Assembly (NCBI GenBank): GCA_051294905.1
Contig: CM119372.1
Span: forward strand, 7,070,001 to 7,134,000
DNA from: Botryllus schlosseri
Taxonomy: Eukaryota
Direction of reading: 5' to 3'
Length of the DNA: 64,000 nucleotides
In this document: positions 3,835 to 41,000 of the stretch, in pieces
Layout: each line of letters starts with the position of its first letter
How positions within the stretch are numbered: position 1 is the first letter of the stretch
The notes under the pieces: generated by a model
The model's database searches: none
Told to the model about the DNA's origin: nothing
The model's input: only the letters and a program-made list of their open reading frames with translations
Position numbers and translations under genes: made by a program

Positions 3835-4690
3835 ATTTATAAAGTCCGGGTATCAGTGATTAATTTATACTCTTAACTTATCATTACTAAGAAACTGAAA
3901 CGAACGCTAGCCCATGAATATATTAAAATAATTAGGAAATGTTCATGGTACAAAACTTGATGATTGTGGTTTCATATCGCAACACCCATTGCAATAGTAC
4001 ATTTAGTCTTAAAGTTATGGCAAATGCATAATATTGCAATAGATGTTGTGATAAAAAGTAATGCAATATAGTTCAAACTACAATTATATACATACACATA
4101 ATGCCGAGTATAATGACAGCCACAACAAGAACAAACAAACAGTAAGATTAGCCTAAAGGAACAATAAATATGATAATTTACTATATGATATTTGGAGATC
4201 CATAGAATAGAAATAGCATTCCAATAATTTGCGAAAAGTCCGAGTATCAGGGTTTAATTTATAATCTATTATAACTAAGAAACTGAAACGAACCCAGCTA
4301 TAACCCGAGATTACTTGCAAAAATTAATGACTGTTCGTGGTACAGAACTTGAAGATTGGTTTCATCACAACACCCATTGCAATAATACGTTTACCCTTCA
4401 AGTTATGGTAAATGTATGTTATTGCAATAGATGTGATCAAAAAACAATTCAATACAATATAAATAACAATTATATGTCACAAATATAATGTCGAATAGCA
4501 ATTGCAACAACACTAACAAAGAAACAGTAACACTATAAAGCGACAATAAATATGACAATACGAATAATACAACAATTAAAATGCAATAATCGCAAGCACG
4601 CGAACAAAGGAACAGTATGAATAAAGGAGCAATAAATATGAAAGTACTAGCCTATATATATGATAGATTGAGAAATCCATAGTATAGAAA
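3835..4690. repeat. Diverged tandem duplication of about 400 bp in the P-element 3' region
   Basis: Shared blocks AAAGTCCG.GTATCAG, CTAAGAAACTGAAACGAAC, CAACACCCATTGCAATA and ATCCATAG.ATAGAAATAGCA recur at about 400-480 bp spacing. Confidence 0.7.
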
Positions 4691-4809
4691 TAGCAGTCGA
4701 AAAAGTAGCGAAACGTATATCAGTAGTATTGGCCGGAAAATCAGTTCCTAAATACTAGAAAAACAGTAACTTATAAGGCAAGAACTTAGCAGTGTTCGAG
4801 GTATTTGTC

Positions 4810-7800: not shown

Positions 7801-8277
7801 AGTGATTCTCCGGTGATTTGTTCTTCACCAGACATATCGACGCCATCATTGCAATCCATTTCTGTGACAGTTGAATTTTATAGGCCCGGAAAATTTTCAT
7901 CTAACTACTCAATATAATCTCGTACCTTCAGCTGACATTGACCTTTCAAGAATTCGCCGAGTACCTTCCAATTTACGGGGCGGATTCGGTACATCAAATA
8001 ATGTGGGGACTGCGTTCTGCTTCAATTTTACGCGACCGTCAATGCGCTTTCTTTCGAACTCATCGGCTTCGAAGTGTTTCTAGAGTTTATTGCGTTGACA
8101 AAAAGCTATTGAATTTAAATTTCAATTGCAACAGACTTCGCAAAGTCTAGAACTCTGTGTTGGCGTCCATTTATCTCGCCTACAGTTTATTTTCCATCTC
8201 CGCCTCCTCTCTTCATTCGCTGGAAAACGGTATACGGCTTTGCGAGATGTGCAATTCGGAGCAGCACAGGAAGGCAT
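4810..8277 (-). pseudogene. Intron-containing THAP-domain P-element transposase (THAP9-like), probably inactivated by a nonsense codon
   Basis: THAP zinc finger MPSCAAPNC...FP...W...RLCE.HF...AVPTLF. Catalytic motifs CILALDEM, VVSDMGPSNQ, FVADVPHLIK, RLTQDAVENLF, plus YYVCGWV and RYIKLRLH. An in-frame TAA at 6405-6407 sits in ...PHLIKN*RTSFL. Confidence 0.88.
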
Positions 8278-9810
8278 TTTGATGTGGTAATCCGGGTAGA
8301 TCTGAAATAAAAACGAACAGCAGACTACAAAAATACACAAATTCACCTTGGTTTTGATGTCCAATATCCCAGTCGACGAGCGTAATCCCATAAATATCAC
8401 TGCCAATATCACCGAAAAGTAACTGCCGCACTAGCAGGTTCAGGCTGTTTGTTGTGGTCTTCTGAGACCAAAATGGAGGGCGTCCTACGTAACAATGAAA
8501 TGACGACACAATGACCTCGCACTTCTTGTCCTTCTATATTCTTTGGTTCAGACGGCATGGTTGCGTCACAATACCAAACTCCGTTACGATGCAACATTAG
8601 AGGTTGATTTTTGGCGGTTCCAGAGCCCCGAGCAGAATAAAATTTATATTTTCGCAATGCTCGGCAAGCCGGTCAAAAATTACCGTCAATAGTTGCCTTT
8701 GACCAAATGGAAAGTGTGACGTAAAATAATTTCACTGAGCCCTGAGATCTGCTAGTGTCCACACCATATAGGATACGTTGTATGTATTGTTAAATCGTGA
8801 GTTCCGGTCTGTTATATAATCTAAAGATATTGCAGTCGCCAAAACGTAGCAGACTAAATGAAAAACTTTCGTCAGACGCACATACAAATTGCCATGCCTC
8901 TATTTCTCTGCAGGTACCCCGGGTGGCATTTACATTGTGAGCTCATATTGGAAGGACCGGACTGTTAGTCCCGCCCGCCCAGCGCGGCTATTGACAATGG
9001 ACAAATACCATAAGTTTCGGCCAAGGTCATTCTTTAATAGCACACGCCGTGGAGTCGCATGTTGGCTAAACTGCATATGTCTTTTGTGTGTCGTGGCGCG
9101 GTAATGACTGGCACCGAATAGCGTATTCATAAAAATTATGCATGTTTTATTCTTGAGGAGAGTTCTGCATTTCCAAATTAAGCTATCTAGAGACGATTAA
9201 ATCGCGAAGCTCAATGAAAATTTTCAAGCTAATTAAATATCTTGGAAAATTTATGTCGATTTACGAAATATTTCCGAGTCCCCTTCGAACTCGCTACCCA
9301 CCCTATGGGGTGCGGCAGTTACGACGGATATGGCAAGAATGCAAATCGTTAAGTGTGATAAATCGTCCCCTATAAAGTTGGGCGAGTAGTTCATTATGAC
9401 GCAACAGGCAAATGACGCATCATTTATAAAGACAGTTGTTATCTCATTACGCCATTTCATCGCAATCCTTGAATTGTCTTTCAATATATCCTCTAATATC
9501 AGTTCTCAGAAGCAAAATAAATGTAATCATGAGTAATCGTGATTACTTTTCCGATGTAATCGTAATCGATTACTTCCTGATTCTGCTATAATCGTAATCG
9601 CGTGATTCAGAAGTAATCGTAATCGCAATCATAGGCGCCGACTTACGAGGTTACGAGGTGGCGCAGCCACCCCGTGACCATATTTACGAGGTGGCGGCCA
9701 CCTCGTACAAAATGCTCAAACGCCCAAGTGATTTGTGACCAGTAATTAGTAATCAGGCGAATCGATGCGACCTCGTTAGAGACGTCTTCGATTTCGATAC
9801 GCGCGTGTGC

Positions 9811-10803
9811 CGGCGCGTAGCCACGGGTTATCGGGGGTCGAACTTCCCTACTTGAAACGCGAAACCCCGTCATTTTGAAATGATCATTCTAACTCTTGCA
9901 ATTGCAACAGTTGCAATTCAATAATTGTGTAATCAGTGTTCCGCGCGGCGGGTTTGCGACAAACGTGTTGTCAATTAGCGCGAAGAATCTGTGATTATCT
10001 CCCGCTGAGATGGTCGCGAATTTAGGTCATTCATTCCCGTGCGCGGGGCAATCGTCGCTAGCCTGATTTATCGCGTCTCGATCAAGCCTGGTTCCGCAGG
10101 CTTCAACAATCGCATCTGCAATGGGCCAAGCTCTCTCTATATCATCGCTTAACTGTGCTATCGAATCTGCATTGGCGGCTTCGGCCTGGTGTGCATGATA
10201 TCAGCGCTGACCTACACAATAGCATCTGCAATAGGCCTGGAGTGAAATATATCAATGCTGGCCTATGGCCTAACTATCGCGTCTCGGGCCTAGCATGCTT
10301 TGATTCCTGTCTCTCGCTGGTTTCGAGACAATGCGGTCGAATTTACGCTAATTAGTTATTGTTTTATGTCATATTGTTTGAAAAGCGACACCGCGAAACT
10401 GAATAACATCAAATCGCTGTAAACAGACTTTTAACGTGCGAAATTGATTCCCGCTAATATTTGAACGTAATGACCAGAAGATGTGTATCATGTCTCGAGT
10501 TCTGAAATACGACGAAGGTTTGAAATCGGTGCAATCAAGCTCGGACATTTTGATTTGCGAAAACTGTCGCCGAGACTGCGTAATACTCGCACGTATTTAA
10601 TTGTTCACCAGAGATCAGTGACTCGCTAATTGACAGCACTCCCGGACTCTGGCAAGCTTATCATACGCCTAAAATCGTCGATACGAAGAGATTATATGAT
10701 CGCCATTTACGCATGTACTTGACCCCTAATTGAATTGATGCTATATTGGTAAATTTGAAAAAAATCCGAATCCCCCTAATTTTTGCGACTGGCTACGCGC
10801 CTA
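9811..10803. mobile_element. hAT-like MITE, same family as 41484-42628
   Basis: TIR GGCGCGTAGCC/GGCTACGCGCC, 8-bp TSD GCGTGTGC, and internal homology to 41484-42628. Confidence 0.8.
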
Positions 10804-13800
10804 GCGTGTGCTGAGAAGCACCATCCTAGATCTCCTCTGCCGACCAAGCGCCCAAATATACGTTCTGCTTTTCTGAAATCTAAATTATGTGCAGTGCACC
10901 CATATTCGTTAACAAAACCATTCATGAGCTAGCTAGCTTCGTGATAGGTAATCGTAGCTCGAAATTGGAGGGTGTGTTGGTGTGTGCCTACAAATTGGAA
11001 TTAATTTCTTCGCAGATTCGCTTTGCCCGTGACATTAAACGGGAGATGTAGCAATACAGCTTAAACACCGATATAATGAGAAAACAATTGTCGCGACGAA
11101 AGCCACTCAATACAGTTTCACACTCAAAACCGATTCGTGGCGATACTGATTAGATGACACGCTTTCTTATTTGCCATCATCCATATTTCTTGTTATCTAC
11201 TTGATACATTCGTACTCCGAAATTGTAGCCAGACATGGGGTGATTACTTTATGAATGTAATCGATTGCGATTACGATTACTTCCGAATGACGCGATTACG
11301 ATTACGATTACAGCAAAATCAGGAAGTAGTCGATTACGATTACGATTACATTGGAAAAGTAATCACGATTACTCACGATTACATTTATTTTGCATTTTAG
11401 AAGTTATATCGGAAGACAATATGTGGATTGCGCTGAAAAGGCCTAATGAGAAAACAAACTTCCTATAAAAAGATGCGTCATTTGCTTGTTACGTCATAAT
11501 GTATCCATTGCCCATTTTTATATAGGACGATTTGTCGCGCCAGGTCCATGACTTCCGCACCCCAAATTTACCAATAGGGTGGGGAGCGAGCTTGAGAGGG
11601 ACTCAAGAGCATTTCATAAACCAACATAACTTATAGATTATTCTCGAGAGATTCAATCAACTTGAAAATTCTCTCTAAATAAGCTTGATTTTGGAATGCA
11701 TACGTCTCCCCCTCAACAAAAAAAGCATACATAATTTATAGTAGGCTTGTATTTAAAACAAATGGTTGTTTAAAACACATTGTTTAAAACTGTTTTAAAC
11801 AAAGGATTTAAAAAAAAAACTATGTTGTGTTTTTTTAAGTTTTAAAATTATACCATAATTGTGTAAGTAAATAATGCTTACCACAATTACCACCCGATTT
11901 AGCCGAACATGTTTTAAACAGGGGCCTTGTTGTAAACATGCTCGTTTCAAATTTATTTTTGTTTTAAATGCAACCCTAATTTATAGCAATTGGCATTTAG
12001 GTTCCAGTCAATACCGTGCCACGACACACGAAAAGACATGCAATTTCGACCAACACGTGACTTCACGAAGTGTGCTACTAAAGAAAAACCTTTGCCGAAA
12101 CTTGGGGTATGTGTCCATTGTCAATAGCCGCGCTGGGTAGGACTAATGGTCCGGTCCTTCCATTCCGAGCCCACAATGCAAATGTCACCCGGACACCCAC
12201 AGAGCATTAAAGACATGACAATTTGTGTGCGCGTCTCGCGAAAGTTTTTCTTTTAGTCTGCTACATAAGGGATAAAACAATGTCTTTTGATTATATAACA
12301 GACCGGAAGTCACGAATTAACAACATGCACTAAAGTAATTATAAAAAGATAACAGACGTTATAATTATGAATTACGTGAGTAGTATATAGGATCGGTCTG
12401 GGGGTGGCAGGGGTTCTTATGGGCCCGCTCGCACATCGCCGTGAAAACTCGTGTTGGCATATCGCGCTTTTAGACCCCCCCTTCCGCTCGCACATCGCCA
12501 TTGGTTCTTATGGGTGCGCTCGCATGTCGCACTTTCGGGTATAGGCATCTCTCGCACATCGCCGTGAAAACTCGTGTTGGCATATCGCGCTTTTAGACCC
12601 CCCTTCCGCTCGCACATCGCCATTGGTTCTTATGGGTGCGGTCGTGACTCGCCATTTTTGCTATAGGCTGCGGTCGTGATTCGCCGTGAAAACTCGTGGT
12701 CGTGACTCGCCTTTTTTGCTATAGGCTGTGGTGGTGATTCGCCATGTATTCTTACGGGATCTGTGATGATTCGCCATGTGTTCTTATGGGTGCGGTCGTG
12801 ATTCGCACTTTCAGACATCTCTCGCGTGGTGTTGAATAGTCACCAACAATAACCGCACAAACGGAAACGTGGCTTGCAAGAGGATTAAGCAGTGCGACCT
12901 ATATTTCGAATGACCTGCGCGCTGAATTGTTTCACAGCCAACCGCGGTGGTCGTGACTCACCTTTTTTACTATAGGTGGTGACGGTGATTCGCCTGTCGT
13001 GTATTCTTACGGGGTCTGTGGTGACTCGCCATGTGTTCTTATGGGTGCGGTCGCATGCGGCTATTGCGTCTTATTGTGGTGGTGGTGAGCGGCTATTGAT
13101 GCTAACACGAAACCCGGGGTGGCGAGCGGCACTTATTTCTTATGGCGGCGGGTCTTATTTCTTATGGGTGCGGTCGTGATTCGTACTTTCGGTAAAGACT
13201 GCGGGCGGCATGTCGTACTTTCAGCAAAAAAGGTGTGAAATAGTTTGCCAAGTCTAGGAATCACTTGCAAGGTAATATTTTGGTATTTAGTTTACCACAG
13301 AGCCGGCGTAGACGGCGATTCGAATATCAACAATAACAACGCTCACGAATTAACACTTCAAATAGCTGTGAAATAGTTTGCAAAACCCCGCGATCGCTGA
13401 CAAGATAATGTCTCGGTCATAACCATCTTTCACGACTTGGTGTCATAACCATACCGATCGCTCACGCGGTGAAATTTTAGTAATCAGTTTGTCACAGAAC
13501 TTGATTTCGCTGGTAAGATTTAACAAGTAACGAATAACAGACCGCGGTAACTTGAATAGCGACAAATTGTCACTTATTTCCGCTCTAACCCTAATCCTTT
13601 GTGAAGAGAACGCTTATTCAAAAGGTTGTGATATAATTTTAAAATCCAACGACCACTCACCGGATAATGCTTCAGACATATAGCAATCTCTCATACCCGC
13701 TCACAAGGTAATATTTCGGTAATAAGTTCGTCACAGAGCCGTCGCAGACGGTGATTCGAAAACCAACAATTTGTCACTCGCCCGCGATCGCTATATGTTT

Positions 13801-14280
13801 CACGCCTCCAGAATAGTGGCTGACTTTAGTTGCGTGATAAGATCCATGAAAATATTCAATCAATGTGTTAGTTTATCAACTTGAAATGAAACTCACTACA
13901 CAAATCAAGTCGATTCGTATCTGAATGTTTTAAATCGGTACAACTCTAATCCTTTGACAAATCTTTAACGCGTTTTTGTTGAATCGAACGTAACCCGAAT
14001 ATTACTGACGCCGACTTTCAGCCGCATCGAATTATTCGCACATTCCGCGCCACTGTTTTCACACTTATAGAATCAATACCAACTATAACTCTACAAGAAT
14101 CAAGAATCACAAGTACGTGCATTACACAGTTATTGTCTTTATCAACTTGAAATCAAACACTTAACAAAAACACACAACTAATCATTTGGCAACTCTAGCA
14201 ATACCAAAAAATTCCAGTATTGTTGATTGAAAATCCTTGAGTCATTATTATCAAAAATGTTATAGTACCGCATCGGGATC

Positions 14281-14397
14281 CATTCGCGGGATGTACTAAA
14301 GGTAAATCCAAATAATCCACATTCGCGGGATGTACTAAAGGTAAATCCAAATAATCCACATTCGCGGGATGTACTAAAGGTAAATCCAAATAATCCA
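14281..14397. repeat. 39-bp tandem repeat x3 (mirror copy at about 23499-23615)
   Basis: Unit CATTCGCGGGATGTACTAAAGGTAAATCCAAATAATCCA. Confidence 0.9.
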
Positions 14398-17300
14398 GAA
14401 TGAAATATTTGGACTTTGACATAGTGTGAATTGAAATAGGATTGACAAACACGACTACCAACTTTGATCCAGCCACATTTCAAGATCATACTTTGAAACA
14501 AGTAATGTAACATTACAACTCTATTCACGATCCCGCTTTCCATTTGTCAAAGAGATATTTTAACATCTTACCATACTCAAAAGAATTATTCACAACATTA
14601 ACAATTGTTCAAAATCTAGTTTTCACCTACTTGATTATATCACTGCAACTCATAAATTTGAATTAATTCATCCTGGTTGTATTCGTATGCTCGGTCTTTT
14701 TTATTCAATTGTAAAGGTTGTTACTATTCTGAAGACAAAGTATTTACAAATCGGTGCATATACGATTTGACTTGGACATACTATATTTCGAGTATACGAG
14801 ATTTGAATGTCTGAACAATAACTGAGAAATAATTTATCACAATTAAATCCGTAATATTACAGCGTAAAAGATATTGGAATGTCAGCAACTCTGTAAGGTC
14901 ATAGTTACTACCACTAATTTACCCGACCAACTCGTCATGATCATTCCTGAAATCAACACAAACGTGACCACTGACTTGAGTTAACCACAAAACAGCATCA
15001 AGTTTTAAATCCACTTGTAGCTTACGGCTTATTTGAATGCGGGTTATGTTTTGTTGTAATTGAGTGTACAGAAATAGTATTACGTCTCGACATATCACCA
15101 TGTCGGAATTTGTGACAGAGAATTGAAACATATGCACTTTACAGAGTGTGAAAATATCACTTTGAGTATCGAGTACCGTTCGAAGCTAGCGATCAATTCT
15201 TAATCATTTCAGTAGCTCCCCATTGTGTGTGCTAAATGTAAAATATCGCGAGGTTATACACTCTAAGACTTTGATCATTACAAAAGTAAATTGTGATATG
15301 TTTGTTAGATGCATCCAATTCAACTAGAAGTGTCTAGTGCCCAACACTCGTAATATCAAAAAAGTACTTGCTACACTGTTATTTGCTACGTGTTATGCAT
15401 TGTTGTTTATTTGTAGTATTGAATGAAATTGTTCTTGAACCCTCAAATAATAATCCCCGACATGAAACCAAGCCGCTGAAAGTCGTTACCATCACGAAGA
15501 TAGAATGTGTACGATGTTTGTCAAATGTGTCCTACCTGACCAACAGAAAACAATTTTCACTAGCTTGGTAATGAAACCGAAGTCTCCATTCGATATTTTG
15601 TTTGTGTCAAATACTTTGCAATGAACACATTTGGGTGGTTGAGCTTTACATCATCAGACTGTCATCTGTACATCAAGAATACATCCGACTTGTAACCGGA
15701 TCGTTTACCTAACCGAGTTGTATGCACAGTTTGATATTTTTGTCATTTAGTGATTGCTGAACATACCACTTCGAAATACTGCGTTGATCTTAATTTCCAT
15801 CATCGTGATAAGTGAAGTACATTTGTTTTGAATTCATAACAATAGGCTTTTCTACGACATGGTAAATTATTGACAAGTTCTGCTTAGAAGATTGGTTGCA
15901 TATCACGAAAAATAATATACCACACATATTATTACTGTTACTCCATTCATCGGCATTTTTTCCGTTGTCGATTTTCAAACGAGTAAAATTTATTACTTGA
16001 GTTGCTCTGCTTACTATATTTAAATGTAAACTCGCCCGTCTTTCAACAACAAACAATGTTAAAAAAGTATGCAATCAAACACAACAAGTTTTACGATACT
16101 AATTATTATCCCACATAACCCATTTCTTACCGAAGACATATGAAATATATTCATGTTACACGAAAATATTCGCTCATGCTACAAACCTGTACAATGATTG
16201 GGGGGTGCTTTCAAACTGTTTCGATACCTCAAGAACTTTATTGTCTGAACGGTTGTTCATGTATCGTAATAATCAAGTAGTTCAACATAGAACTAGTATT
16301 AACAGAAACATCAGAGTTGTTTACACAAAAGTTTGTATGCGTGCAGTATGCGAATACCATGTGTAAGTCCAGCACAATTGTGGTATCCATCCGGGTTTAG
16401 TTAACACAATTTACGACACCGAGGTCACCTCATCTTTCGTAAGACAACAAACCAACCAAGGTTTCAGGATATGTCCGTGTCATAGCAATAAATCAGCTAC
16501 TACAACAACAGAGTACATATGTTTTCTAGTTACGGCGCTTACGTCTTACACACAAATCAATCCACTTTGCTAACAAAAAGTGCTGGGTCATCAAGTGATT
16601 ACCCTAACAACAAAACAGCTAAACGTACTATCATACAAAATGGCCGTTATAGTCACCAACGGTACATCGTACAAGTAACAAGTCTCGAGAATCCAGTTAT
16701 TGAAAAAACATGAAAGTGTTTCTACACCAAGTCGTTATGTTGACGAAAGCGTATATTGTAATATCATGATCGATTTGCATTCGTTGGTCACAAAATGTCA
16801 CTACTCTAAATAATTATTTTTCACTCAAACACAAACGCATACTTGTCGCCAATCGTTTTCATCAAGCACGAGTTCAAGAAACCTGCTACGACATGAATTG
16901 TTATTTTTTTATGTTGTGTAAATAGGTAATAATGAATTTTAGTAACACTATATCAACATCATCTAGTTGCGCGAATAGATTTACACGTGGTCTTGTGGTT
17001 TTAATCGAAGTACACAGCGCGGTCTAACGCGGAGTCATCTCTATTGTACAGCAACTCGGAAATCGAAATGCATGCATTAACATTTAAACAGCGATCGCGT
17101 TTCGTGACGCGAAAAATATGTTCACCACCGCGATACTCTGCACAGGGCGTGCAAATCCTTTTCACACTCGTAATAGTATACCAACGGCTACCGGCGACAA
17201 CGTTTAACAATACCAACGACACTAAACATACGATACCTACCCAAGTAAAATTTCCATTTTCACCTGGAGGTCAGCCGTTACCTGACTAAAAATACCATTG

Positions 17301-19789
17301 TCCTTTGGAGATTTATCGTTTACCCAGTGTAACAATCCCCTTTTCACTTGGAAATATATTTTTGACCTGGATAACAAACCCCTTTTCACTTGGAAATCTA
17401 TTTTTGCCCTGGATAACAAACCCCTTTTCACTTGGAAATCTATTTTTGCCCTGGATAACAAACCTTTTCCACTTGGAAATATATTTTTTCTCTTGGTAAC
17501 AAACCTTTTTCACTTGGAAATATATTTTTTCTCTGGTTAACAAACCTTTTTCACTTGGAAATATATTTTTTCTCTGGGCAACAAACCTTTTTCCCCGGGT
17601 AACAAACCTTTTTCCCTGAGCAACAAGCCCTTTTCACTTGGTGGGTCGTCGTTTACCTGAGTAAAAATATCATTTTCCTTTGGAGATCTGGCGTTTACCC
17701 AGTGTAACAATACATTTTCTCTTGGTCATCTAGCTTTTCCTAGAGTAACTAATCATTTCTCCTGGGTAACAAACCCTTTTCGTCTGGAAAACTATCATTT
17801 ACCCGAGTACCAATACCGTTTTCACTTGGAAATCTATCTTTTCCCTGGGTAACAATATCATTTTCGTTTTGAAAACTGACAACCACACCGGCCAATTTGA
17901 TATTTTTGGATATTGTTACAACGGATAGTGACAAAATATACACCAACAACGACTCCGATACATTTGTCTAATCAAATATTCACTTGCTCTGATGCATCCC
18001 ATCAAAATCATTGGTTACTCACATACAATAACAATGTGCTGTTGTACATCGACATGTATGTTTTCGGAATTGGCGAATAAAGGGGTTTCCGATATGTCTG
18101 TGATGTCCGGGTTCGTGCTTTGGATTTTCCAGAATCAAAATGTCTGAATAAAACACCCCCCTTGACTTTGGTAACTGGTTGATACACGGATAATGGTGTT
18201 CGGAAAACGGATGAATTTATGTTCCCCATCGCGCTAATAACTCTGGGTTACTTGTGAGTTTCCTCAGGTCTGTTTACTATATTGTGTCTTTACTGGTCAA
18301 TACATGTCGCTCCAGTCAGCTGCAACTGGCATAATGTATTTGGTGATTACCATCGTTATCAATCTTTCACGTGATGAATATGTCGGATGTCGCTACTCCC
18401 ACATAACGACTCCAGCTAAACATCGTGAGCAGTGACTCCGGATTGAAATCGTAAACAGGGACTCTGTGTGTGTGTGTGTGAATCTCGAGTTCGATTACGA
18501 TTAGAGAATGTAATCCAGGGTGTGTCTCTGCGAGCTGAAGGCGGATTTCGTGTTAATCACACCGCAAGAGGGTGCTATCTCGTAACTCGACAGGTCAACA
18601 TAAATCGCGGTTGGAAACTTTTGGTCTAGTTGATCCAGCTACGTATTGAAACGTTGTACCCACACAGCCCATTGAGAAAACGTTGTCGTTACCTGACCAT
18701 ATCCACGAGTAAATATGGGACTACGCGTAACTGTCCATAGATTCCTCTGGCCCCACACCGTGGTTTTACGACACAGACAAGATGCAGCGGTGGAAATATT
18801 AAAAATGAAAAACGATACCTTGGTGACATTTGATTTGGATTTTACACCTGACGAACCATACACTCGATTGGTACATTGGGATGACAACTCTATCGTCGAG
18901 GTCAAGGGAAAAGAAATGTACAGATTTGTTGGTGTTGTGGATATTCAGCGAAAATCAGGGTATATGGTTGTGTATGGTTCGCATATTTGACTGAGAATAT
19001 ATCGGTATACATAATGCACTGTCCATTGTATCATGTCGTGTGTCATCTATGCCCACATTGAATGTACAGAGTCGTCGCATGATGAGACTTGAGAACATGA
19101 ATTTGTTTTCCATGATGTTTGTACACCGACACATTGTATGTACACCTCGTTTACGCGAATACTTGTGAACAATCGTGACGTTACTTGTATGTGATGGTGT
19201 ATGCATTGGTATTTTTCATGGAGACAAAACACGGCCTGTAACATGTTTACTTGAATATTGGTCGTTGGTTCATGAGTGAATATCCGGATCAGGCCCACAC
19301 ACTTTCTCATATTAGTGATCCGGTTGCAGCTGACTGGAGCGACATGTATTGACCAGTAAAGACACAATATAGTAAACAGACCTGAGGAAACTCACAAGTA
19401 ACCCAGAGTTATTAGCGCGATGGGGAACATAAATTCATCCGTTTTCCGAACACCATTATCCGTGTATCAACCAGTTACCAAAGTCAAGGGGGGTGTTTTA
19501 TTCAGACATTTTGATTCTGGAAAATCCAAAGCACGAACCCGGACATCACAGACATATCGGAAACCCCTTTATTCGCCAATTCCGAAAACATACATGTCGA
19601 TGTACAACAGCACATTGTTATTGTATGTGAGTAACCAATGATTTTGATGGGATGCATCAGAGCAAGTGAATATTTGATTAGACAAATGTATCGGAGTCGT
19701 TGTTGGTGTATATTTTGTCACTATCCGTTGTAACAATATCCAAAAATATCAAATTGGCCGGTGTGGTTGTCAGTTTTCAAAACGAAAAT

Positions 19790-20660
19790 GATATTGTTAC
19801 CCAGGGAAAAGATAGATTTCCAAGTGAAAACGGTATTGGTACTCGGGTAAATGATAGTTTTCCAGACGAAAAGGGTTTGTTACCCAGGAGAAATGATTAG
19901 TTACTCTAGGAAAAGCTAGATGACCAAGAGAAAATGTATTGTTACACTGGGTAAACGCCAGATCTCCAAAGGAAAATGATATTTTTACTCAGGTAAACGA
20001 CGACCCACCAAGTGAAAAGGGCTTGTTGCTCAGGGAAAAAGGTTTGTTACCCGGGGAAAAAGGTTTGTTGCCCAGAGAAAAAATATATTTCCAAGTGTAA
20101 AAGGTTTGTTAACCAGAGATAAAAATATATTTCCAAGTGAAAAAGGTTTGTTACCCAGAGAAAAAATATATTTCCAAGTGAAAAAGGTTTGTTAACCAGA
20201 GAAAAAATATATTTCCAAGTGAAAAAGGTTTGTTAACCAGAGAAAAAATATATTTCCAAGTGAAAAAGGTTTGTTAACCAGAGAAAAAATATATTTCCAA
20301 GTGAAAAAGGTTTGTTAACCAGAGAAAAAATATATTTCCAAGTGAAAAAGGTTTGTTACCAAGAGAAAAAATATATTTCCAAGTGAAAAAGGTTTGTTAC
20401 CAAGAGAAAAAATATATTTCCAAGTGGAAAAGGTTTGTTATCCAGGGCAAAAATAGATTTCCAAGTGAAAAGGGGTTTGTTATCCAGGGCAAAAATAGAT
20501 TTCCAAGTGAAAAGGGGTTTGTTATCCAGGTCAAAAATATATTTCCAAGTGAAAAGGGGATTGTTACACTGGGTAAACGATAAATCTCCAAAGGACAATG
20601 GTATTTTTAGTCAGGTAACGGCTGACCTCCAGGTGAAAATGGAAATTTTACTTGGGTAGG
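19790..20660. repeat. Minisatellite of about 41 bp in the right arm (shorter mirror array at about 17240-17860)
   Basis: Unit approximately CCAGAGAAAAAATATATTTCCAAGTGAAAAAGGTTTGTTAA. The right arm is 247 bp (about 6 units) longer than the left. Confidence 0.9.
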
Positions 20661-23600
20661 TATCGTATGTTTAGTGTCGTTGGTATTGTTAAACGTTGTC
20701 GCCGGTAGCCGTTGGTATACTATTACGAGTGTGAAAAGGATTTGCACGCCCTGTGCAGAGTATCGCGGTGGTGAACATATTTTTCGCGTCACGAAACGCG
20801 ATCGCTGTTTAAATGTTAATGCATGCATTTCGATTTCCGAGTTGCTGTACAATAGAGATGACTCCGCGTTAGACCGCGCTGTGTACTTCGATTAAAACCA
20901 CAACACCACGTGTAAATCTATTCGCGCAACTAGATGATGTTGATATAGTGTTACTAAAATTAATTATTACCTATTTACACAACATAAAAAAATAACAATT
21001 CATGTCGTAGCAGGTTTCTTGAACTCGTGCTTGATGAAAACGATTGGCGACAAGTATGCGTTTGTGTTTGAGTGAAAAATAATTATTTAGAGTAGTGACA
21101 TTTTGTGACCAACGAATGCAAATCGATCATGATATTACAATATACGCTTTCGTCAACATAACGACTTGGTGTAGAAACACTTTCATGTTTTTTCAATAAC
21201 TGGATTCTCGAGACTTGTTACTTGTACGATGTACCGTTGGTGACTATAACGGCCATTTTGTATGATAGTACGTTTAGCTGTTTTGTTGTTAGGGTAATCA
21301 CTTGATGACCCAGCACTTTTTGTTAGCAAAGTGGATTGATTTGTGTGTAAGACGTAAGCGCCGTAACTAGAAAACATATGTACTCTGTTGTTGTAGTAGC
21401 TGATTTATTGCTATGACACGGACATATCCTGAAACCTTGGTTGGTTTGTTGTCTTACGAAAGATGAGGTGACCTCGGTGTCGTAAATTGTGTTAACTAAA
21501 CCCGGATGGATACCACAATTGTGCTGGACTTACACATGGTATTCGCATACTGCACGCATACAAACTTTTGTGTAAACAACTCTGATGTTTCTGTTAATAC
21601 TAGTTCTATGTTGAACTACTTGATTATTACGATACATGAACAACCGTTCTGACAATAAAGTTCTTGAGGTATCGAAACAGTTTGAAAGCACCCCCCAATC
21701 ATTGTACAGGTTTGTAGCATGAGCGAATATTTTCGTGTAACATGAATATATTTCATATGTCTTCGGTAAGAAATGGGTTATGTGGGATAATAATTAGTAT
21801 CGTAAAACTTGTTGTGTTTGATTGCATACTTTTTTAACATTGTTTCTTGTTGAAAGACGGGCGAGTTTACATTTAAATATAGTAAGCAGAGCAACTCAAG
21901 TAATAAATTTTACTCGTTTGAAAATCGACAACGGAAAAAATGCCGATGAATGGAGTAACAGTAATAATATGTGTGGTATATTATTTTTCGTGATATGCAA
22001 CCAATCTTCTAAGCAGAACTTGTCAATAATTTACCATGTCGTAGAAAAGCCTATTGTTATGAATTCAAAACAAATGTACTTCACTTATCACGATGATGGA
22101 AATTAAGATCAACGCAGTATTTCGAAGTGGTATGTTCAGCAATCACTAAATGACAAAAATATCAAACTGTGCATACAACTCGGTTAGGTAAACGATCCGG
22201 TTACAAGTCGGATGTATTCTTGATGTACAGATGACAGTCTGATGATGTAAAGCTCAACCACCCAAATGTGTTCATTGCAAAGTATTTGACACAAACAAAA
22301 TATCGAATGGAGACTTCGGTTTCATTACCAAGCTAGTGAAAATTGTTTTCTGTTGGTCAGGTAGGACACATTTGACAAACATCGTACACATTCTATCTTC
22401 GTGATGGTAACGACTTTCAGCGGCTTGGTTTCATGTCGGGGATTATTATTTGAGGGTTCAAGAACAATTTCATTCAATACTACAAATAAACAACAATGCA
22501 TAACACGTAGCAAATAACAGTGTAGCAAGTACTTTTTTGATATTACGAGTGTTGGGCACTAGACACTTCTAGTTGAATTGGATGCATCTAACAAACATAT
22601 CACAATTTACTTTTGTAATGATCAAAGTCTTAGAGTGTATAACCTCGCGATATTTTACATTTAGCACACACAATGGGGAGCTACTGAAATGATTAAGAAT
22701 TGATCGCTAGCTTCGAACGGTACTCGATACTCAAAGTGATATTTTCACACTCTGTAAAGTGCATATGTTTCAATTCTCTGTCACAAATTCCGACATGGTG
22801 ATATGTCGAGACGTAATACTATTTCTGTACACTCAATTACAACAAAACATAACCCGCATTCAAATAAGCCGTAAGCTACAAGTGGATTTAAAACTTGATG
22901 CTGTTTTGTGGTTAACTCAAGTCAGTGGTCACGTTTGTGTTGATTTCAGGAATGATCATGACGAGTTGGTCGGGTAAATTAGTGGTAGTAACTATGACCT
23001 TACAGAGTTGCTGACATTCCAATATCTTTTACGCTGTAATATTACGGATTTAATTGTGATAAATTATTTCTCAGTTATTGTTCAGACATTCAAATCTCGT
23101 ATACTCGAAATATAGTATGTCCAAGTCAAATCGTATATGCACCGATTTGTAAATACTTTGTCTTCAGAATAGTAACAACCTTTACAATTGAATAAAAAAG
23201 ACCGAGCATACGAATACAACCAGGATGAATTAATTCAAATTTATGAGTTGCAGTGATATAATCAAGTAGGTGAAAACTAGATTTTGAACAATTGTTAATG
23301 TTGTGAATAATTCTTTTGAGTATGGTAAGATGTTAAAATATCTCTTTGACAAATGGAAAGCGGGATCGTGAATAGAGTTGTAATGTTACATTACTTGTTT
23401 CAAAGTATGATCTTGAAATGTGGCTGGATCAAAGTTGGTAGTCGTGTTTGTCAATCCTATTTCAATTCACACTATGTCAAAGTCCAAATATTTCATTCTG
23501 GATTATTTGGATTTACCTTTAGTACATCCCGCGAATGTGGATTATTTGGATTTACCTTTAGTACATCCCGCGAATGTGGATTATTTGGATTTACCTTTAG

Positions 23601-26192
23601 TACATCCCGCGAATGGATCCCGATGCGGTACTATAACATTTTTGATAATAATGACTCAAGGATTTTCAATCAACAATACTGGAATTTTTTGGTAATGCCA
23701 GAGTTGCCAAATGATTAGTTGTGTGTTTTTGTTAAGTGTTTGATTTCAAGTTGATAAAGACAATAACTGTGTAATGCACGTACTTGTGATTCTTGATTCT
23801 TGTAGAGTTATAGTTGGTATTGATTCTATAAGTGTGAAAACAGTGGCGCGGAATGTGCGAATAATTCGATGCGGCTGAAAGTCGGCGTCAGTAATATTCG
23901 GGTTACGTTCGATTCAACAAAAACGCGTTAAAGATTTGTCAAAGGATTAGAGTTGTACCGATTTAAAACATTCAGATACGAATCGACTTGATTTGTGTAG
24001 TGAGTTTCATTTCAAGTTGATAAACTAACACATTGATTGAATATTTTCATGGATCTTATCACGCAACTAAAGTCAGCCACTATTCTGGAGGCGTGAAACA
24101 TATAGCGATCGCGGGCGAGTGACAAATTGTTGGTTTTCGAATCACCGTCTGCGACGGCTCTGTGACAAACTTATTACCGAAATATTACCTTGTGAGCGGG
24201 TATGAGAGATTGCTATATGTCTGAAGCATTATCCGGTGAGTGGTCGTTGGATTTTAAAATTATATCACAACCTTTTGAATAAGCGTTCTCTTCACAAAGG
24301 ATTAGGGTTAGAGCGGAAATAAGTGACAATTTGTCGCTATTCAAGTTACCGCGGTCTGTTATTCGTTACTTGTTAAATCTTACCAGCGAAATCAAGTTCT
24401 GTGACAAACTGATTACTAAAATTTCACCGCATGAGCGATCGGTATGGTTATGACACCAAGTCGTGAAAGATGGTTATGACCGAGACATTATCTTGTCAGC
24501 GATCGCGGGGTTTTGCAAACTATTTCACAGCTATTTGAAGTGTTAATTCGTGAGCGTTGTTATTGTTGATATTCGAATCGCCGTCTACGCCGGCTCTGTG
24601 GTAAACTAAATACCAAAATATTACCTTGCAAGTGATTCCTAGACTTGGCAAACTATTTCACACCTTTTTTGCTGAAAGTACGACATGCCGCCCGCAGTCT
24701 TTACCGAAAGTACGAATCACGACCGCACCCATAAGAAATAAGACCCGCCGCCATAAGAAATAAGTGCCGCTCGCCACCCCGGGTTTCGTGTTAGCATCAA
24801 TAGCCGCTCACCACCACCACAATAAGACGCAATAGCCGCATGCGACCGCACCCATAAGAACACATGGCGAGTCACCACAGACCCCGTAAGAATACACGAC
24901 AGGCGAATCACCGTCACCACCTATAGTAAAAAAGGTGAGTCACGACCACCGCGGTTGGCTGTGAAACAATTCAGCGCGCAGGTCATTCGAAATATAGGTC
25001 GCACTGCTTAATCCTCTTGCAAGCCACGTTTCCGTTTGTGCGGTTATTGTTGGTGACTATTCAACACCACGCGAGAGATGTCTGAAAGTGCGAATCACGA
25101 CCGCACCCATAAGAACACATGGCGAATCATCACAGATCCCGTAAGAATACATGGCGAATCACCACCACAGCCTATAGCAAAAAAGGCGAGTCACGACCAC
25201 GAGTTTTCACGGCGAATCACGACCGCAGCCTATAGCAAAAATGGCGAGTCACGACCGCACCCATAAGAACCAATGGCGATGTGCGAGCGGAAGGGGGGTC
25301 TAAAAGCGCGATATGCCAACACGAGTTTTCACGGCGATGTGCGAGAGATGCCTATACCCGAAAGTGCGACATGCGAGCGCACCCATAAGAACCAATGGCG
25401 ATGTGCGAGCGGAAGGGGGGGTCTAAAAGCGCGATATGCCAACACGAGTTTTCACGGCGATGTGCGAGCGGGCCCATAAGAACCCCTGCCACCCCCAGAC
25501 CGATCCTATATACTACTTACGTGCCTCAACTCTACAGGTAAATCTGACCATCGGGGGCAGAGAGAGAGAGGATTAAAAATTAATAATAATGTAATGCGAT
25601 TACCAATATTATTGACGAAATTCAGTCTTCAACTTGAAATTATCACCCTATGGGGCCAAAGACCAACGTTTGGACTGGGGGACGAACAGCTGTTTTGGTC
25701 CTGATTCTAGCTACAACCCACGCTAACATGATATATAAGCCCATGGCTATAGGCGCTGGTCCCAATGTTGAGTAAAGAATTATGAAATAACGATTGACGC
25801 ATGTTTCAAGCAGAGTCATATGAGCAGAACATAAAATTCTGCCTACAACTTAGGCCTAATACAGATAATATACTGCAAGCTGCCGCTACGAGAAATGGGA
25901 AAAACGGCCCGGTTATGATATATATCAGCAGCTGTTGATTTTTATTGCTTCGTTGTGGAAACCTAAATGTTTTATCTGTTGAGTACTAAATTTCAAATCT
26001 CTGTCCAGTGTAGGACTACGTACGTACTACATAGGCCTACTGCTCGCCAAGCAGCAACGGTCAAACTGCGTTTGCATAACCAAACATCAATACACAAGTT
26101 ACTAGGCAAAGTGGTGATTAACTATCCTGCTGCGGGGTACTGGCGGGTGGAACGTGTTGATAACCTGATATACAGCACGGCGGGCGTTATTA

Positions 26193-27163
26193 CGGTTGCC
26201 GGTGAACCAAGCCTTACAAACTCAGCCCTCGGTGAACTCGGCCCTCGGGAAATTTTGTATTCACGGATTGAGTAAGCGGGGGAGATAACGCGACGCTCAC
26301 ATACTCTACTTGTTTGTTTTGTGGTATTCATGGTGTTTCTCGAATACTATGGACCTCGGTGAATTCCGCCCCCGAACAATTTTGAATTAAAGCTGGGAGC
26401 TGGGATATTAGGGTTGGCGGAGGTAGGATATTAGGGTTGGTGGAGGTGGGATATTAGGGTTGGTGGAGGTGGGATATTAGGGTTGCCGGAGGTGGGATAT
26501 TAGGGTTGCCGGAGGTGGGATATTAGGGTTGCCGGAGGTGGGATATTAGGGTTGCCGGAGGTAGGATATTAGGGTTGCCGGAGGTAGGATATTAGGGTTG
26601 CCGGAGGTGGGATATTAGGGTTGCCGGAGGTGGGATATTAGGGTTGGGGGAGGAGAGATATTACGGTTGGTGGAGGTGGAATATTAGGGTTGCCGGAGGT
26701 GGGATATTAGGGTTGCCGGAGGTGGGATATTAGGGTTGCCGGGGTGGGATATTAGGGTTGGGGGAGGGGAGATATTAGGGTTGCTGGTGAATACAAAATT
26801 TCCCGAGGGCGGAATTCACCAAGGGCCGGGTTCACCGAGGTCAGAGTTCACCTAGGGCCGAGTTTGTAAGGCTGAGTTCAACGAGGTCTGATCGATATGT
26901 GAACGTCGCGTTCTTTCCCGCGCTGGGCGCTTGCGCAATCCGTGACCTGATCACGCCGTGACTGCGTGATCTACGCATGCCCTGACCTTACAAGATCGAC
27001 AAATCAGTTGATAATAACATTATTAGTTTAATAATTCATAATAGTACTTGTTAATACACTCAACTACAAAAGTTCCCGAGGGCCGAGTTCACCGAGGTCC
27101 GAGTTCACCGAGGGCCGAGTTTGTAAGGCAGGGTTCACCGAGGGCTGGGTTCACTAGTAATCG
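26193..27163. mobile_element. Unclassified non-autonomous DNA transposon with CGG/CGA-type ends and an internal TTAGGG-containing minisatellite
   Basis: Imperfect TIR CGGTTGCCGGTGAACC / GGTTCACTAGTAATCG; probable 6-bp TSD TTATTA/TTCTTA; absent from the homologous site in copy A (about 2655); repeated GAGTTCACCGAGG motifs. Confidence 0.7.
26400..26790 (+). repeat. 23-bp G-rich minisatellite, about 17 units
   Basis: Unit GGGATATTAGGGTTGCCGGAGGT with variants. Confidence 0.9.
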
Positions 27164-28598
27164 TTCTTACAATCACACGAATGTACGTGACGTACATCGA
27201 ATATCTATTTACTGTGGATACTTCTTACGCGATGACTAGCAAAGCTAATAGGCTACTTCTGACGTAATAATGAGCAATGGCATTTAAAAATCAGACGTTT
27301 GAACCTGGTATAATACATCTTCCTTGTTCACGAATGTTCAGTGTATGTCATAGTCCTTGTACAAATAAAAAGTAATCGTTCTTTCACAAAGAAATCGATT
27401 AGATATGGGAAGTAGTCGATTACGATTACGATTATTTCGGATTTTTCTCGAATGTAATCGATTGCGATTACGATTACTTGAAAATGCTGTAATCGTCGTA
27501 ATCGATTACGATTACTAAACGCGATTACCCCATGTCTGATTGTAGCGCAAAGTAATTTTTCAGTCTTTCTTTCATTATTAACGTGATGCATCACAAGATT
27601 ATGGGTGGCACAAATTCTGATTTTATTCGATTCGTTTGAACAGGGAACCTTCTACATTCCGATAAACTTGATGATTGCTGGATGTACTCGTATCGAGAAC
27701 AACATTATCCGAGTTCAGCCAAAATATCCGATATATGTAATACGCATATCGCGAGAATAATGTAATTTGAATATTTTCACCGCAATCTCAAACCATGACG
27801 CCAGACTATCACCACTTCTATCTTATTACATCTCATGCCTTCATGTATATATATTGAATAAAAATGCGCACCTATACAACCCCACCCCCACCCCCCACCC
27901 AAATGCCCCAAACACCCCTTCCAGCCACCATACAGAGAGCCCAAGACCACTCCGCCCCATAACCCAACCAACAGTTGAATCTAAACCTGAACCACCTCAA
28001 AGCTTAGAAAATCCCGAACAGAAAAACCCGGACCACGCCCTCTCCACTTGCTAAGTGAAAGAATGAGCGTCATCCTTTCAAAAATAGCACATCCACCCAT
28101 ACCCCACAAGACAACCCCCATCCCAAGATACGTATATCATTTATTGTAATATTGCACTTCTATACTTATGAAAATAAACCACTAAACCAGAACAACATTA
28201 TCGAATATTAAACTATCAGGCATAAGATAGACAGTGGATTTCTATTGGTAAGATCGCGGCATGCGTCCTAAAGTGGAATTAATTCTAGCCCAAGGGTGGC
28301 CAACCCGCGGCCGTAGAACGAAATTTGTGCGGCCGTCAACACGTAATTCAATTAGTATGCGTTGGCGGCCGTCGACATGCCGATTGAATTTACGAATTGA
28401 CCGATTCACTCCCGAAATGCTTCGCGAACTTGAATCGGGAAATGCACCAATGTTATAATCATCAAACAATTGCCGAGTTGGTGAACGCGAAGCAAGAAAC
28501 CGTAAGAGACAATTATTGATTGGCTGCGCAATTTCGCGTTTGTAATCATCATTATTGTCTACTTGAAGTTTCGAGTATTTGCGTGTACGTTCCCTTAC

Positions 28599-31317: not shown

Positions 31318-32035
31318 TCCAACTTAGTCCTCCGTACCAAACAAACGTACTGCGTAACGCAAGAAATCAATGCGGAATGGCGTCTCTGGTCTATCGAAGT
31401 GGACTTACTTTGCGAAGACTAACGGTAATGATTACTTGCGATTACATTGTGCGGTTCCAAGACGATTCTGTAATCTTGAAGTCAGGATTACGCTCTGTTA
31501 TTATGGATGTGGTACTCGTTAACGTTTGTTTTGTACCGTTACTACCGTATCTTGCCCGTCTACTAGTTGTTTGTTTTTGTTATTATTACGTCATACAGAC
31601 AAAATAGTTCTTAGATTTCGAATTTGATTCACCCTATCGCTGACGTTTGCTATTGATGAGAGTCAGTCGAAAGGCTTTTAGCGAATAAATTAACAATATG
31701 AAGTTATTGTTTCGCGATATTAATTTTACATACCACACCAATATCTTTTTGTCATAACAATGGCAAAACAGTTTGCATCCTCACATCGTCCTCTCAATAC
31801 TGAGCAGTTAGCTGAAAGCAGCACCCGCATACAAATCCCATCCCATCCATGACAACAGAGCGTAATCCTGACTTCAAGATTACAGAATCGTCTTGGAACC
31901 GCATAGTGTAATCGCAAGTAATCATTACCGTTAGTCTTCGCAAAGTAAATCCACTTCGATAGACCAGAGACGCCATTCCGCATTGATTTCTTGTGTTGCG
32001 CAGTACGTTTGTTTGGTACGGAGGACTAAGTTGGA

Positions 32036-38000: not shown

Positions 38001-41000
38001 TCTTCATGCTTCCCGATGTCATTCGATTTCTTTCTTTTAATATATTGTTACATCCCCCCCCTGAAGATGAGAGAACGTCTAATGTACCAGATCGAATGTA
38101 ACTATATTCGAAGTTGCGAGAGAAAGTGTCATGTTCAACATGCGACCTTACGTTTGCGCTCGCAGAAAGAACGTCGAATATGAAAAAAATTTTGCGCCTG
38201 GCGCGGCTAGTGGCTCGCGCGCTGGTTTGTCAATTGCATTTGGCCCTTTGACCAAAAAGGTTGGCCACCTCTGGGCTGCAGCAAGCAATCTTAAATTCCT
38301 TTTCGCTTTGTTCTGATCGTGGGTCTAGTGAGTATATTCTCATAATTGATGTCTACATCACAAATGTAATCTCTATGCTGGCTGATTTGTTCTGTGGCTG
38401 GCTTGTTCTGTGGGTCTGTATATCAGTTGAAACAAGCTGAGCACAAAATATAAATAGGACTTGTTAATTTTACTTTAGCATGAAGATCTGGGACAAAGAT
38501 AAAAACTGCATGGCATTTCATGTCATCTGCGATGAAATATGGATGCATGGCTAAGGATAGATCGGCATTCAATGTCATTTGCTATTAAAGAAGCTAAATG
38601 GAAATTCGGAACCTTATAGATGACTGTCATTTCTGTATGGGTGACATTCCAAGGTTAGAAATAACTAAAAATGACTTAACATTGCATATCCTTCTATGTC
38701 ATCTACTCTTAAGCACCTGTTCCGTATTGTAGTAAGTTTTCACTGCCCAAACAAACTATCGGTCAAAAAAGCTCAAAGAATCGACAGGGCTTGAAGATAA
38801 TAAAAATGAGTCCAATGACGACTTCAACATCTCCCATATAGATATAAATCCAAAACCACACATTCATAACCAACACGAACTTGATGATTTAGTCGGGACT
38901 CATTGAATCAAATGCGGAAATTCTGACTCCAAGGTTGAAAGTAGGGAACGATGTCCATCGTCGAGAAAAAGGCATGAACGATTTTCACTTATTCCGTAAT
39001 ACCAGGTGATTTCTCAGTCTATAGACCCAAATCATGCAAGGCGCTACCGAGGCGATATTTGTGCATATTCCTTCGTTTTGTGAGTGGATTTGTATGTCCA
39101 ATAAGGAATTACGCGTATTATTACTATGCGTATTATTACATGTGAATTTTGAGTGTAATGTGAAATCACAAAAAGTGACATTTTTCAAAGACATGATACA
39201 TGAAAATTTTTACTCGAATAAAATTTTGTGTAAAAATTTTCATGTATCAATTATGGTGTTCTTTTTGGTCCATAATAAGATTTCTCATTTCGCAGACGCA
39301 AGTCACGCAAACAGAACCACTTCTGACGATTTTTCAAGTGTTGCTTTGTTACTTGATGCTTGTTCATATTAACCTTTTCATAAGCGATTTTTTACCTCCA
39401 ATAATGAATTATTGTGATTAATGAGGAGCAATGATAACTAAAATTGAAAATTAGAGAAATTGACATTACTTGTAAATTTGGGACACTTCAGTCAAAATTT
39501 TGCTACTTTGGTATTTGGTTTGGAATACTAAAACACAAACATGAAAAGCTAAAACTTATTGCAAAATTTTGTTACATGGTGTTATTCGCGTTCAGTGGAA
39601 CCTGTGTTGTGGTAAAGGGTATTATGATATCAACAAACTTTTCTGAAACATCGTTATTAGCACATCGATTTGTAAAACTGAATTAACATTTCCAAAATAT
39701 TCTTGATTGGAAATTAATCCATTTGTCACGATCGCAACAATGTGTCACAGAACGGTATAATGTACTCGCCAACTAATATTTTACAAATCAATCGTTTTCA
39801 ATAACCAAGACTGAAGATACAATAACAATTTCGGTATTGATACATTCAACAACCGGTACAACACTTTATTGTTGGGATCTGCGACAAGGAATTGGAACAC
39901 ATACACACGCACATAACGGTTTTGTTTATTTGAATCCTGAAAATTACCGGCTATGATAATGTTTTCTGTGGGACTAACACATTGCGTGCAATGTCATACA
40001 CCTCATTTACGCGAAAACTTGGTATGGGTGACACTGAACAATCGTGAAGTACTTGATGTGTGGATGGTGTATGCATTGATATTTTTTTCATGGAAACGAA
40101 AAACACGGGTTGTAACATATTTATTTGAATATTGGTTGTTGGTTTATCGATTCAGAGTGAATATCCTGATCCGGTCACATCTTTCTCATGGTCATCCGAT
40201 TTCAAACTGAATGAGGTGATGTGATATGCATTTAACAATAACGATTAACACAATAAAGTAAACATACATATGCGTGAGTAAGAAAACTCGCAAACATACA
40301 ACCCGGAATTGTTAGCATGATGGGAAGAACGAATTCATCCATTTTCAGAAGATCGTCACCGTTACCAATGTACCAACCAGTTACCAAAGTCGTAATCGCG
40401 GCATATGAAAAAACAGGCTTCAGCGAACGAATGTCCGCTGCAGTTAATACAGCCTATATGATTTTAGTCCACGGATTAATATTCCAAACCAACATCCAGC
40501 TTAACATCTAGCCGTTGAAATTGAGCCAAATTTGCTGTGCAGCGGTTTTTTAGAGACGACTTAAATTTAGCTAATAAGCCTCGAAAATTTGGAAAAAGTT
40601 ACTTCTCCAATAACCCTAATATATACCCACTTGTTTTGCAGGAAGTCAATATGTAACTGTAGTGAAGGGTTCACCCAGCCGATATGCGAGAAGAAAGACA
40701 GAAAAGACTATTGCAAATTGAAACCGTGTAAGGCCGGGACCTGTCATAACGGCACCAGGTGGCGAAAAATTTGACAGCTGTATCTTTTCCGTTGGTGTGC
40801 ATTGCACAAAATTGTTGATCGTGCAGCTGCTGCGAACTTTAGCTGCTAGAAAATTCTACTTGTCCAATTAGACTAATTATGAGAGAACTGCCTGTAATGT
40901 AATTCTAATCTAGTTTGTGAAATTTTTCTATGCTCATCCTAATTCTACTTTCTGTTTTCCTGTACATGCTACAGAAGAACTGTACAGTGCGAAACGAGCC

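Follow-up and report, generated by a model that had tools for sequence, protein, structure and literature searches.

How the long palindrome in this DNA came to enclose a single-copy centre was the question raised by positions 18327-19322 of the window, that is, of the whole analysed stretch of 64,000 nucleotides from Botryllus schlosseri (GCA_051294905.1, contig CM119372.1, 7,070,001-7,134,000, forward strand). This 996-nt spacer was found to be the loop of a 13,139-bp insertion, a mirror-image mobile element of about 13 kb. The symmetry extended to 12379 on the left and to 25517 on the right, and the flanks outside these limits were unrelated to each other. The element starts with AGTAGT and finishes with ACTACT, i.e., (AGT)2/(ACT)2, and a perfect 6-bp target-site duplication (TSD), TACGTG, is present at both flanks. 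According to the accessible part of a vertebrate survey, 5'-(AGT)2//(ACT)2-3' ends and a perfect 6-bp TSD are the hallmarks of Mavericks (Polintons), and the inverted repeats of these elements span 46-1,447 bp (PMC8097293). Both hallmarks were found at this locus; inverted repeats were also present, at 5.9-6.2 kb and thus far outside the range reported in that part of the survey. The coordinates of all features are collected in the table.

The arms accounted for 92% of the element. Subterminal 122/32-nt repeats, a 39-nt repeat in three copies and a 41-nt array were recognized in the left arm. The two arms differed by 9 substitutions over 5948 nt and by one indel (identity 99.85%, divergence 0.15%). 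This indel of 247 nt was the sole length difference and lay in the 41-nt array, of which the left arm contained 7.5 copies (17330-17641) and the right arm 12.1 copies (20056-20555); the right arm is longer because its array has more copies. The longest stop-to-stop frame across 12300-20000 was 122 aa, and no Pfam family was detected at the cut-off in the 13 element frames scanned (65 were listed). The arms appear to be non-coding. Among the core Maverick genes, neither PolB nor integrase was detected, nor were ATPase, protease or capsid proteins. Because this test for core genes was negative, it may be concluded that the element is not an autonomous Maverick; it is a Maverick-ended element without detectable core genes. 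The intact TSD, the 0.15% arm divergence and the many contigs carrying related sequence are those of a multi-copy, recently mobile non-autonomous derivative.

The surrounding window consists of repeat-rich, gene-poor DNA of animal-like appearance, and several other repeats were observed in it. A 23-nt tandem array of 17 copies (26396-26784) lies approximately 0.9 kb to the right of the element. An older palindrome occupies 28568-36595; its core arms (28892-31509 and 31844-34935) are 91-95% complementary and enclose a 334-nt spacer, its mirrored 134-aa ORFs (30175-30579 and 33249-33653) matched no Pfam family, and neither a Maverick end motif nor a TSD was found at the ends tried. An inverted repeat pair, 1-1950 and 45966-47999, is 84-87% identical, has its members 44 kb apart and runs off the left end of the window. 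A broken transposase remnant on the minus strand (4810-7168), which is presumably P-element-like, matched PF21787 (TNP-like RNase H N-terminal) at 6770-7168 with an E value of 2.5e-17 and has a 241-aa frame downstream of this match. Finally, a 63-nt array of 9.4 copies (54895-55483) is located within long, mutually overlapping ORFs of 431 and 490 aa, neither of which matched a Pfam family, and is flanked by 319-nt direct repeats (53568-53886 and 57168-57486) that are 98% identical and 3.6 kb apart; together, the array and these repeats are possibly a small LTR-like element.

The edges of the loop were then defined by pairing of the arms. No mismatch was found from 18326/19323 outward to 17552/20097, and the first failure occurred at 18327/19322, which bears out the abrupt stop of arm identity described in the first-pass annotation. 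Of the few near-complementary bases that it reported past this stop, the next two positions do pair; over the first 20 positions, 7 paired, which is near the approximately 5 expected by chance. The (GT)n tract placed at about 18465-18480 was recovered as (TG)8. Degenerate GT tracts of at least 15/18 occur only twice in the window when both strands are considered, namely, in the spacer and at 39896 on the minus strand. Searches with DNA patterns returned 11 loci, each of which matched the pattern alone, and an Rfam search gave a single chance-level match. Self-inverted similarity within the spacer was insignificant, its score being reached by 291 and 205 of 300 shuffles and by 297-483 of 500, and it ranked only 118-476 among approximately 1058 loci; comparison of the left spacer end with the right one likewise revealed no significant direct inverted similarity. 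The spacer is unique in the sense of uniqueness within the window, and contigs from two independent studies covered it at very high summed depth.

A relative of the right part of the loop is located near 40 kb. Its positions 39997-40391 aligned with 19141-19485 at 71% identity (E 1.8e-51), and the local alignment reached 19097/39953. The homolog that the first-pass annotation had described as crossing the boundary between spacer and right arm (19322/19323) was thereby confirmed, and for 19097-19322 this older relative supported an unbroken run from the right spacer into the right arm. The aligned identity was 114/128 over 19190-19322, 71/85 over 19097-19190 and 126/163 over the adjacent arm. 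The non-coding segment 19190-19322 is thus better conserved than the adjoining arm, which suggests that it may contain a cis-acting site. On the right side of the loop, the homology faded at approximately 19097. In run X1, 25 contigs shared letters specific to this relative (40196-40213) as a loose end; the relative is therefore a piece of a sister subfamily with many copies. Within the window, it had no inverted partner and no remnant of the 91-aa ORF of the loop, and it could not be extended beyond its GT tract, into the ORF or deeper into the arm. It does not count as a demonstrated non-palindromic ancestor.

Followed inward along the minus strand, the 40-kb relative continues past 39953 to the degenerate GT tract at 39896, and homology over this extension is probable. 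Both GT tracts have the same arm-to-centre orientation and are preceded by similar motifs. When the left spacer (18327-18480, GT tract included) was compared with the window, the tile 39881-40200 (minus strand) ranked first of 3148 tiles in all four scoring schemes. When wider regions were compared at first, the score of the match was reached by 21 of 300 shuffles. For narrower regions, which were picked after a first look, the score was reached by 0-3 of 500 shuffles in five schemes with the GT tract and by 4-209 of 500 without it, in which case the match ranked 2nd to 108th of approximately 393 loci. Over 39885-39953, the left spacer side agreed with the relative at 42/61 positions versus 32/65 for the right spacer side. 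Judged from these comparisons, homology of the left spacer segment to the 40-kb relative, after a gap of approximately 140-155 nt between the left arm and the matching left spacer, is likely. If this homology is real, the left side consists of the arm, the gap and the old continuation of the arm itself, and 18326-18330 is a deletion scar. The left edge is probably such a scar, near 18329/18330, and not the place of the first fold-back; a break at 18329/18330 plus one substitution at 18327 would be compatible with the three bases that follow the boundary. An older turn point is probable near 19046-19097. The first-pass annotation had proposed that 18326 was a new template-switch joint, possibly primed by microhomology, and had regarded colinearity of non-palindromic relatives across 18326 as evidence to the contrary. 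Such colinearity was nearly reached, since the left spacer matches the relative after the gap. A deletion is thus favoured over the joint because the left spacer likely matches the inward continuation of the arm, and the run-on pairing of 7/20 gives priming no support.

Other copies of this sequence were studied in sequencing runs. Parts of 17900-19322 were present in 20 of the 24 listed runs, from 7 studies, and contigs of 4 of the 24 were aligned to 18297-19770 (1,474 nt) at 85% likeness. In X1, 17,794 contigs matched this region in four identity bands, which indicates that the family is large and contains diverged subfamilies. At six arm sites (19326, 19405, 19411, 19486, 19515 and 19740), a letter other than that of the window made up at least 90% of the depth in both X1 and X2. 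At all six sites, which came from 40 of 200 difference rows, the minority allele of the window was mirrored in the left arm, and one of the mirrored pairs, 18323/19326, lies 4 nt from the loop boundary. The arms diverged from each other approximately ten times less than from the majority sequence of the family (at least 6 differences in 448 nt). The X1 depth without the majority letter at these sites was 1,365-10,610, versus 9-72 for the single X1 contigs listed. This suggests that the minority alleles are probably subfamily markers older than the insertion, with third alleles as a possible contribution to the depth. The simplest reading of the mirrored alleles is copying between the arms that extended as far as the loop edge, as expected of mutual templating in a panhandle, the proposed mechanism.

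The copies may not all share one layout. The median depth over 18547-19046, 19047-19296 and the arm was in the ratio 1 : 2.5 : 4.1 in X1 and 1 : 3.8 : 4.1 in X2, compared with 1 : 1 : 2 for a single fixed layout, the summed contig depth not being a copy number. In both runs the depth stepped up at 19047; the step was opposite in X6 (ratio 0.3), in which at least two contigs begin at 19046. One listed X1 contig joins 18411 to 19087, with the ORF removed. The depth step and the contig ends fit copies that have 19047-19322 in both arms or that are devoid of the ORF core. The depth was low at the left boundary. None of the contigs listed (24 of 19,301 pieces, with 24 of 460 loose ends) bridged this boundary or spanned the full 18297-19770, and no full sister copy was seen among the contigs compared.

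The protein-like 91-aa ORF pointed out in the first-pass annotation has an ATG start and real homologues. Its length alone is unremarkable, because an ATG ORF of at least 91 aa arose in 142 of 2000 versions of the spacer with shuffled bases. Four clusters of relatives (7 sequences) were found on contigs of 0.9-2.0 kb. The diverged relatives are 68-75% identical in pairwise comparison and, save for one residue, retain the start, stop and length; in one relative, the start is extended by 7 residues. In the alignment, which contains one single-residue gap, 49 of 91 columns were invariant, compared with approximately 46 expected without rate differences (an estimate from pairwise identities), and 28 of 58 distinct substitutions were conservative versus 36% expected (p 0.037). 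Together, these comparisons provide moderate evidence that the ORF is under constraint; the evidence is only moderate because gene calling prefers intact frames, which biases the intactness seen among the relatives. The second ORF named in that annotation (19047-19367) had no homologue (0 of 1 candidates scored) and was frame-shifted relative to the 40-kb relative. A minus-strand ORF at 19047-19391 was rejected as a gene since it belonged to no Pfam family and contained frame-shifting indels relative to the same sequence.

No known family was found for the 91-aa protein in Pfam (best E 0.11), PHROGs (best E 0.076) or PDB sequences (best E 1), and no match was found in the ESM Atlas or phage records. 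It was not part of any of 2715 longer candidate proteins and was absent from 74 IMG/VR records and 223 metagenome contigs. A match to P0008 (E 1e-5) was rejected, as it was a repeat protein aligning over 22 residues. Structure prediction, which had been suggested in the first pass, yielded two beta-rich AlphaFold models with pLDDT values of only 36 and 48; fold searches with them returned nothing at E ≤0.001 and, at such pLDDT values, carry no weight. With low confidence, the protein is predicted to be beta-rich.

The RNA signal was weak. In X24, the one run certain to be RNA, approximately 3% of which was read, 175 of 22.2 million records matched, and 100 of these were less than 95% alike. 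The RNA depth over the 91-aa ORF was 0-4 reads, with reads on both strands. The main RNA pile in this run lies in the arm at 19480-19740 (mirror 17909-18170); it was 30-40 reads deep, on one strand, and consisted mostly of diverged relatives. A loose end before 19492 hints at an outward transcript starting near 19480. The sequence opening this loose end is presumably the handle of a template-switch oligo; the chemistry of the run is not recorded. No RNA run was listed among the holders of 17900-19322, and X6 is only guessed to be RNA.

Table. Features of the palindromic element and its 40-kb relative (window coordinates)
Feature	Position	Strand	Remarks
TSD, left copy	12373..12378	.	TACGTG
Left arm	12379..18326	+	5948 nt; starts AGTAGT
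Present left edge of arm identity	18327..18330	.	putative deletion breakpoint near 18329/18330
Left spacer segment	18340..18482	+	probable homolog of 40041-39895 (minus); moderate evidence
(TG)8 tract	18465..18480	+	other degenerate GT tract in window: 39896 (minus)
91-aa ATG ORF	18715..18990	+	no known family; full-length relatives 99, 75, 73, 68%
Candidate older turn point	19046..19097	.	homology fade, depth step, contig starts
Right spacer segment	19097..19322	+	continuous with arm in 40-kb relative (alignment)
Right arm	19323..25517	-	6195 nt; finishes ACTACT
TSD, right copy	25518..25523	.	TACGTG
40-kb relative	39895..40391	+	solitary fragment of diverged sister subfamily; firm homology 39953-40391

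Taken together, these data are best accounted for if the element is a non-autonomous Maverick/Polinton derivative of panhandle shape, with the spacer as its loop, that arose by fold-back, later underwent a deletion on the left and has had its arms re-copied by a helper; the probability of this reading is estimated at approximately 0.6, and among the possible origins fold-back is favoured. In the ancestor, the order would have been the arm, the 19322..19097 segment, the GT-tract segment and the ORF. This ancestor would have folded back just downstream of the ORF, at about 19046-19097, and the left copy would later have lost approximately 150 nt next to 18329, halting the copying of the arms and producing the sharp edge seen today. 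A helper Maverick would supply the protein-primed polymerase and the integrase, both acting on the ends of the element. The displaced single strand would fold into a 6-kb stem and a 1-kb loop, and one arm would be re-copied from the other, which would keep the arms identical up to the first large mismatch. The loop would be the sole single-copy part, encoding a small, putatively beta-rich protein that is probably expressed and most likely acts on the propagation of the element itself or on the helper. The ends of the spacer, once paired in this model, have no significant inverted similarity, which may point to an older or a more mosaic history. Adenovirus repairs its terminal repeats via a panhandle, and Kapitonov and Jurka (2006) are reportedly cited for the panhandle model. 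In the accessible text of a study of casposons, the folded single strand was restated, again as a model (PMC4046053).

Several other histories were weighed against this one. If the spacer and right arm preserve the unbroken ancestral sequence and the template switch, primed by microhomology, originally took place at 18326, then the sharpness of the boundary and the 40-kb relative crossing its right counterpart are expected, as is the weakness of the left homology once the GT tract is excluded; moreover, the depth of the first bin (18297-18346) is below that of its neighbour by more than at the other end, and some copies may differ there. This history is nevertheless considered unlikely, since no microhomology above chance was present, the inward continuation of the 40-kb relative was the best tile in the window with GT tracts co-locating, and the relative was not colinear rightward into the ORF side. 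The arrangement must also be old, because the left spacer is present to at least 18335 in diverged relatives too. The arms of Y-chromosome palindromes are kept identical by gene conversion, and conversion between the arms after integration, with the boundary as the edge of a conversion tract, would require no panhandle replication by a helper. It also predicts mirrored alleles and 99.85% arm identity, and approximately 1% divergence from the family majority fits with an intact TSD. However, the alleles of the window appear to be common to many copies, as judged from the residual depth, the arms differ in the length of a tandem array, which conversion would tend to remove, and exact Maverick ends with a fresh 6-bp TSD require an integrase acting on a molecule that was already palindromic; conversion is therefore held to be improbable. 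An assembly artefact from fold-back reads, which near-identical arms and the lack of a listed contig spanning 18297-19770 might suggest, is very improbable, as the symmetry stops precisely where the Maverick end motifs and the 6-bp TSD lie, the flanks are unrelated, the arms differ by 9 substitutions and in array length, and the sequence recurs across most of the listed runs.

The role of the loop is a separate matter, which fits either history. The ORF might be passive cargo, either left over from an accessory gene of a Maverick or acquired from the host, in a spacer that only stabilises the long palindrome. The ORF lacks any family, structure or fold match, its RNA signal is weak, the contig joining 18411 to 19087 does without it, and the depth of its region is approximately one quarter of that of the arms, all of which would suit cargo. 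This is possible, if doubtful, given that four lineages approximately 30% apart have retained the start, stop and length of the ORF. The adjacent non-coding DNA, unlike the ORF, differs from its relative by many indels, there is a modest excess of conservative changes, and in X6 (guessed RNA) the depth of the ORF region is approximately three times that of the neighbouring segment, opposite to what X1 and X2 show. A bolder proposal goes beyond the preferred panhandle derivative and is offered tentatively, as rather unlikely: the element, with its genome of hairpin and loop, could be a genuine satellite of an animal polintovirus, in which case the arms would serve both as a self-correcting origin recognised by the helper and as stuffer bringing the genome near helper size, and the small, beta-rich loop protein would redirect or dampen the helper, as in phage satellites. 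If so, the moving inner edge (older at 19046-19097, later at 18326) would record successive subfamilies under panhandle replication.

The loop anatomy, the loop gene and the revised reading of the junctions are new here. That Mavericks replicate through a folded single strand is so far a model, and an abundant family with arms copied up to a sharp loop edge would be a natural record of it. Many copies can be scored for mirrored alleles and for shifts of the inner boundary, and the conserved 91-aa loop protein is an easy target for expression and structural work. A literature search that lay outside most subscription journals, supplements and Repbase, whose tables could hold such elements, found no report of giant palindromic non-autonomous Mavericks.

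Among known systems, the Foldback-type transposon FB of Drosophila has long arms around a central loop, tandem arrays inside the arms that vary in copy number, 9-11-bp TSDs and Mutator-type ends. The present element likewise has arms with tandem arrays around a loop; unlike FB, it has Maverick ends and a 6-bp TSD. With autonomous Mavericks, as described in the accessible part of the vertebrate survey, it shares the (AGT)2//(ACT)2 ends, the 6-bp TSD and a length (13.1 kb) within their range of 12.7-24.6 kb, whereas its inverted repeats of 5.9-6.2 kb, the 92% arm content and the lack of detected core genes set it apart (PMC8097293). In the accessible text on the anole Polinton, the terminal inverted repeats (TIRs) are 584 bp long and no non-autonomous copies are described (PMC3014272), and remnants of Polinton TIRs are reported from C. 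elegans in the available portion of another study (10.1101/2024.01.15.575659). Butterfly Polintons, according to the accessible part of their description, have gene-containing TIRs of approximately 2 kb and polB-less derivatives whose mobility was inferred (10.1101/2025.02.07.637071). They resemble the present element in their enlarged inverted repeats and in mobility inferred despite loss of the polymerase, but they retain core genes, with hexon and protease in the TIRs (10.1101/2025.02.07.637071); here, the arms are three times longer and apparently non-coding, and the single supported gene lies in the loop. Transpovirons, in the available part of their description, are likewise linear, with terminal inverted repeats, without structural genes and dependent on a virus; they differ in their length of about 7 kb, in having a helicase gene, in being carried by giant viruses and in that most of their sequence is not palindromic (PMC5499653). 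Copy-back (panhandle) defective viral genomes, as outlined in partial accounts, likewise carry one end copied on both sides of a unique loop, and the predicted dependence on a helper and arm-to-arm templating are also alike. Unlike them, the present element is integrated with a TSD, inherited, divided into diverged subfamilies and equipped with a conserved gene. By this analogy, the element would work like the copy-back defective genome of a Maverick.
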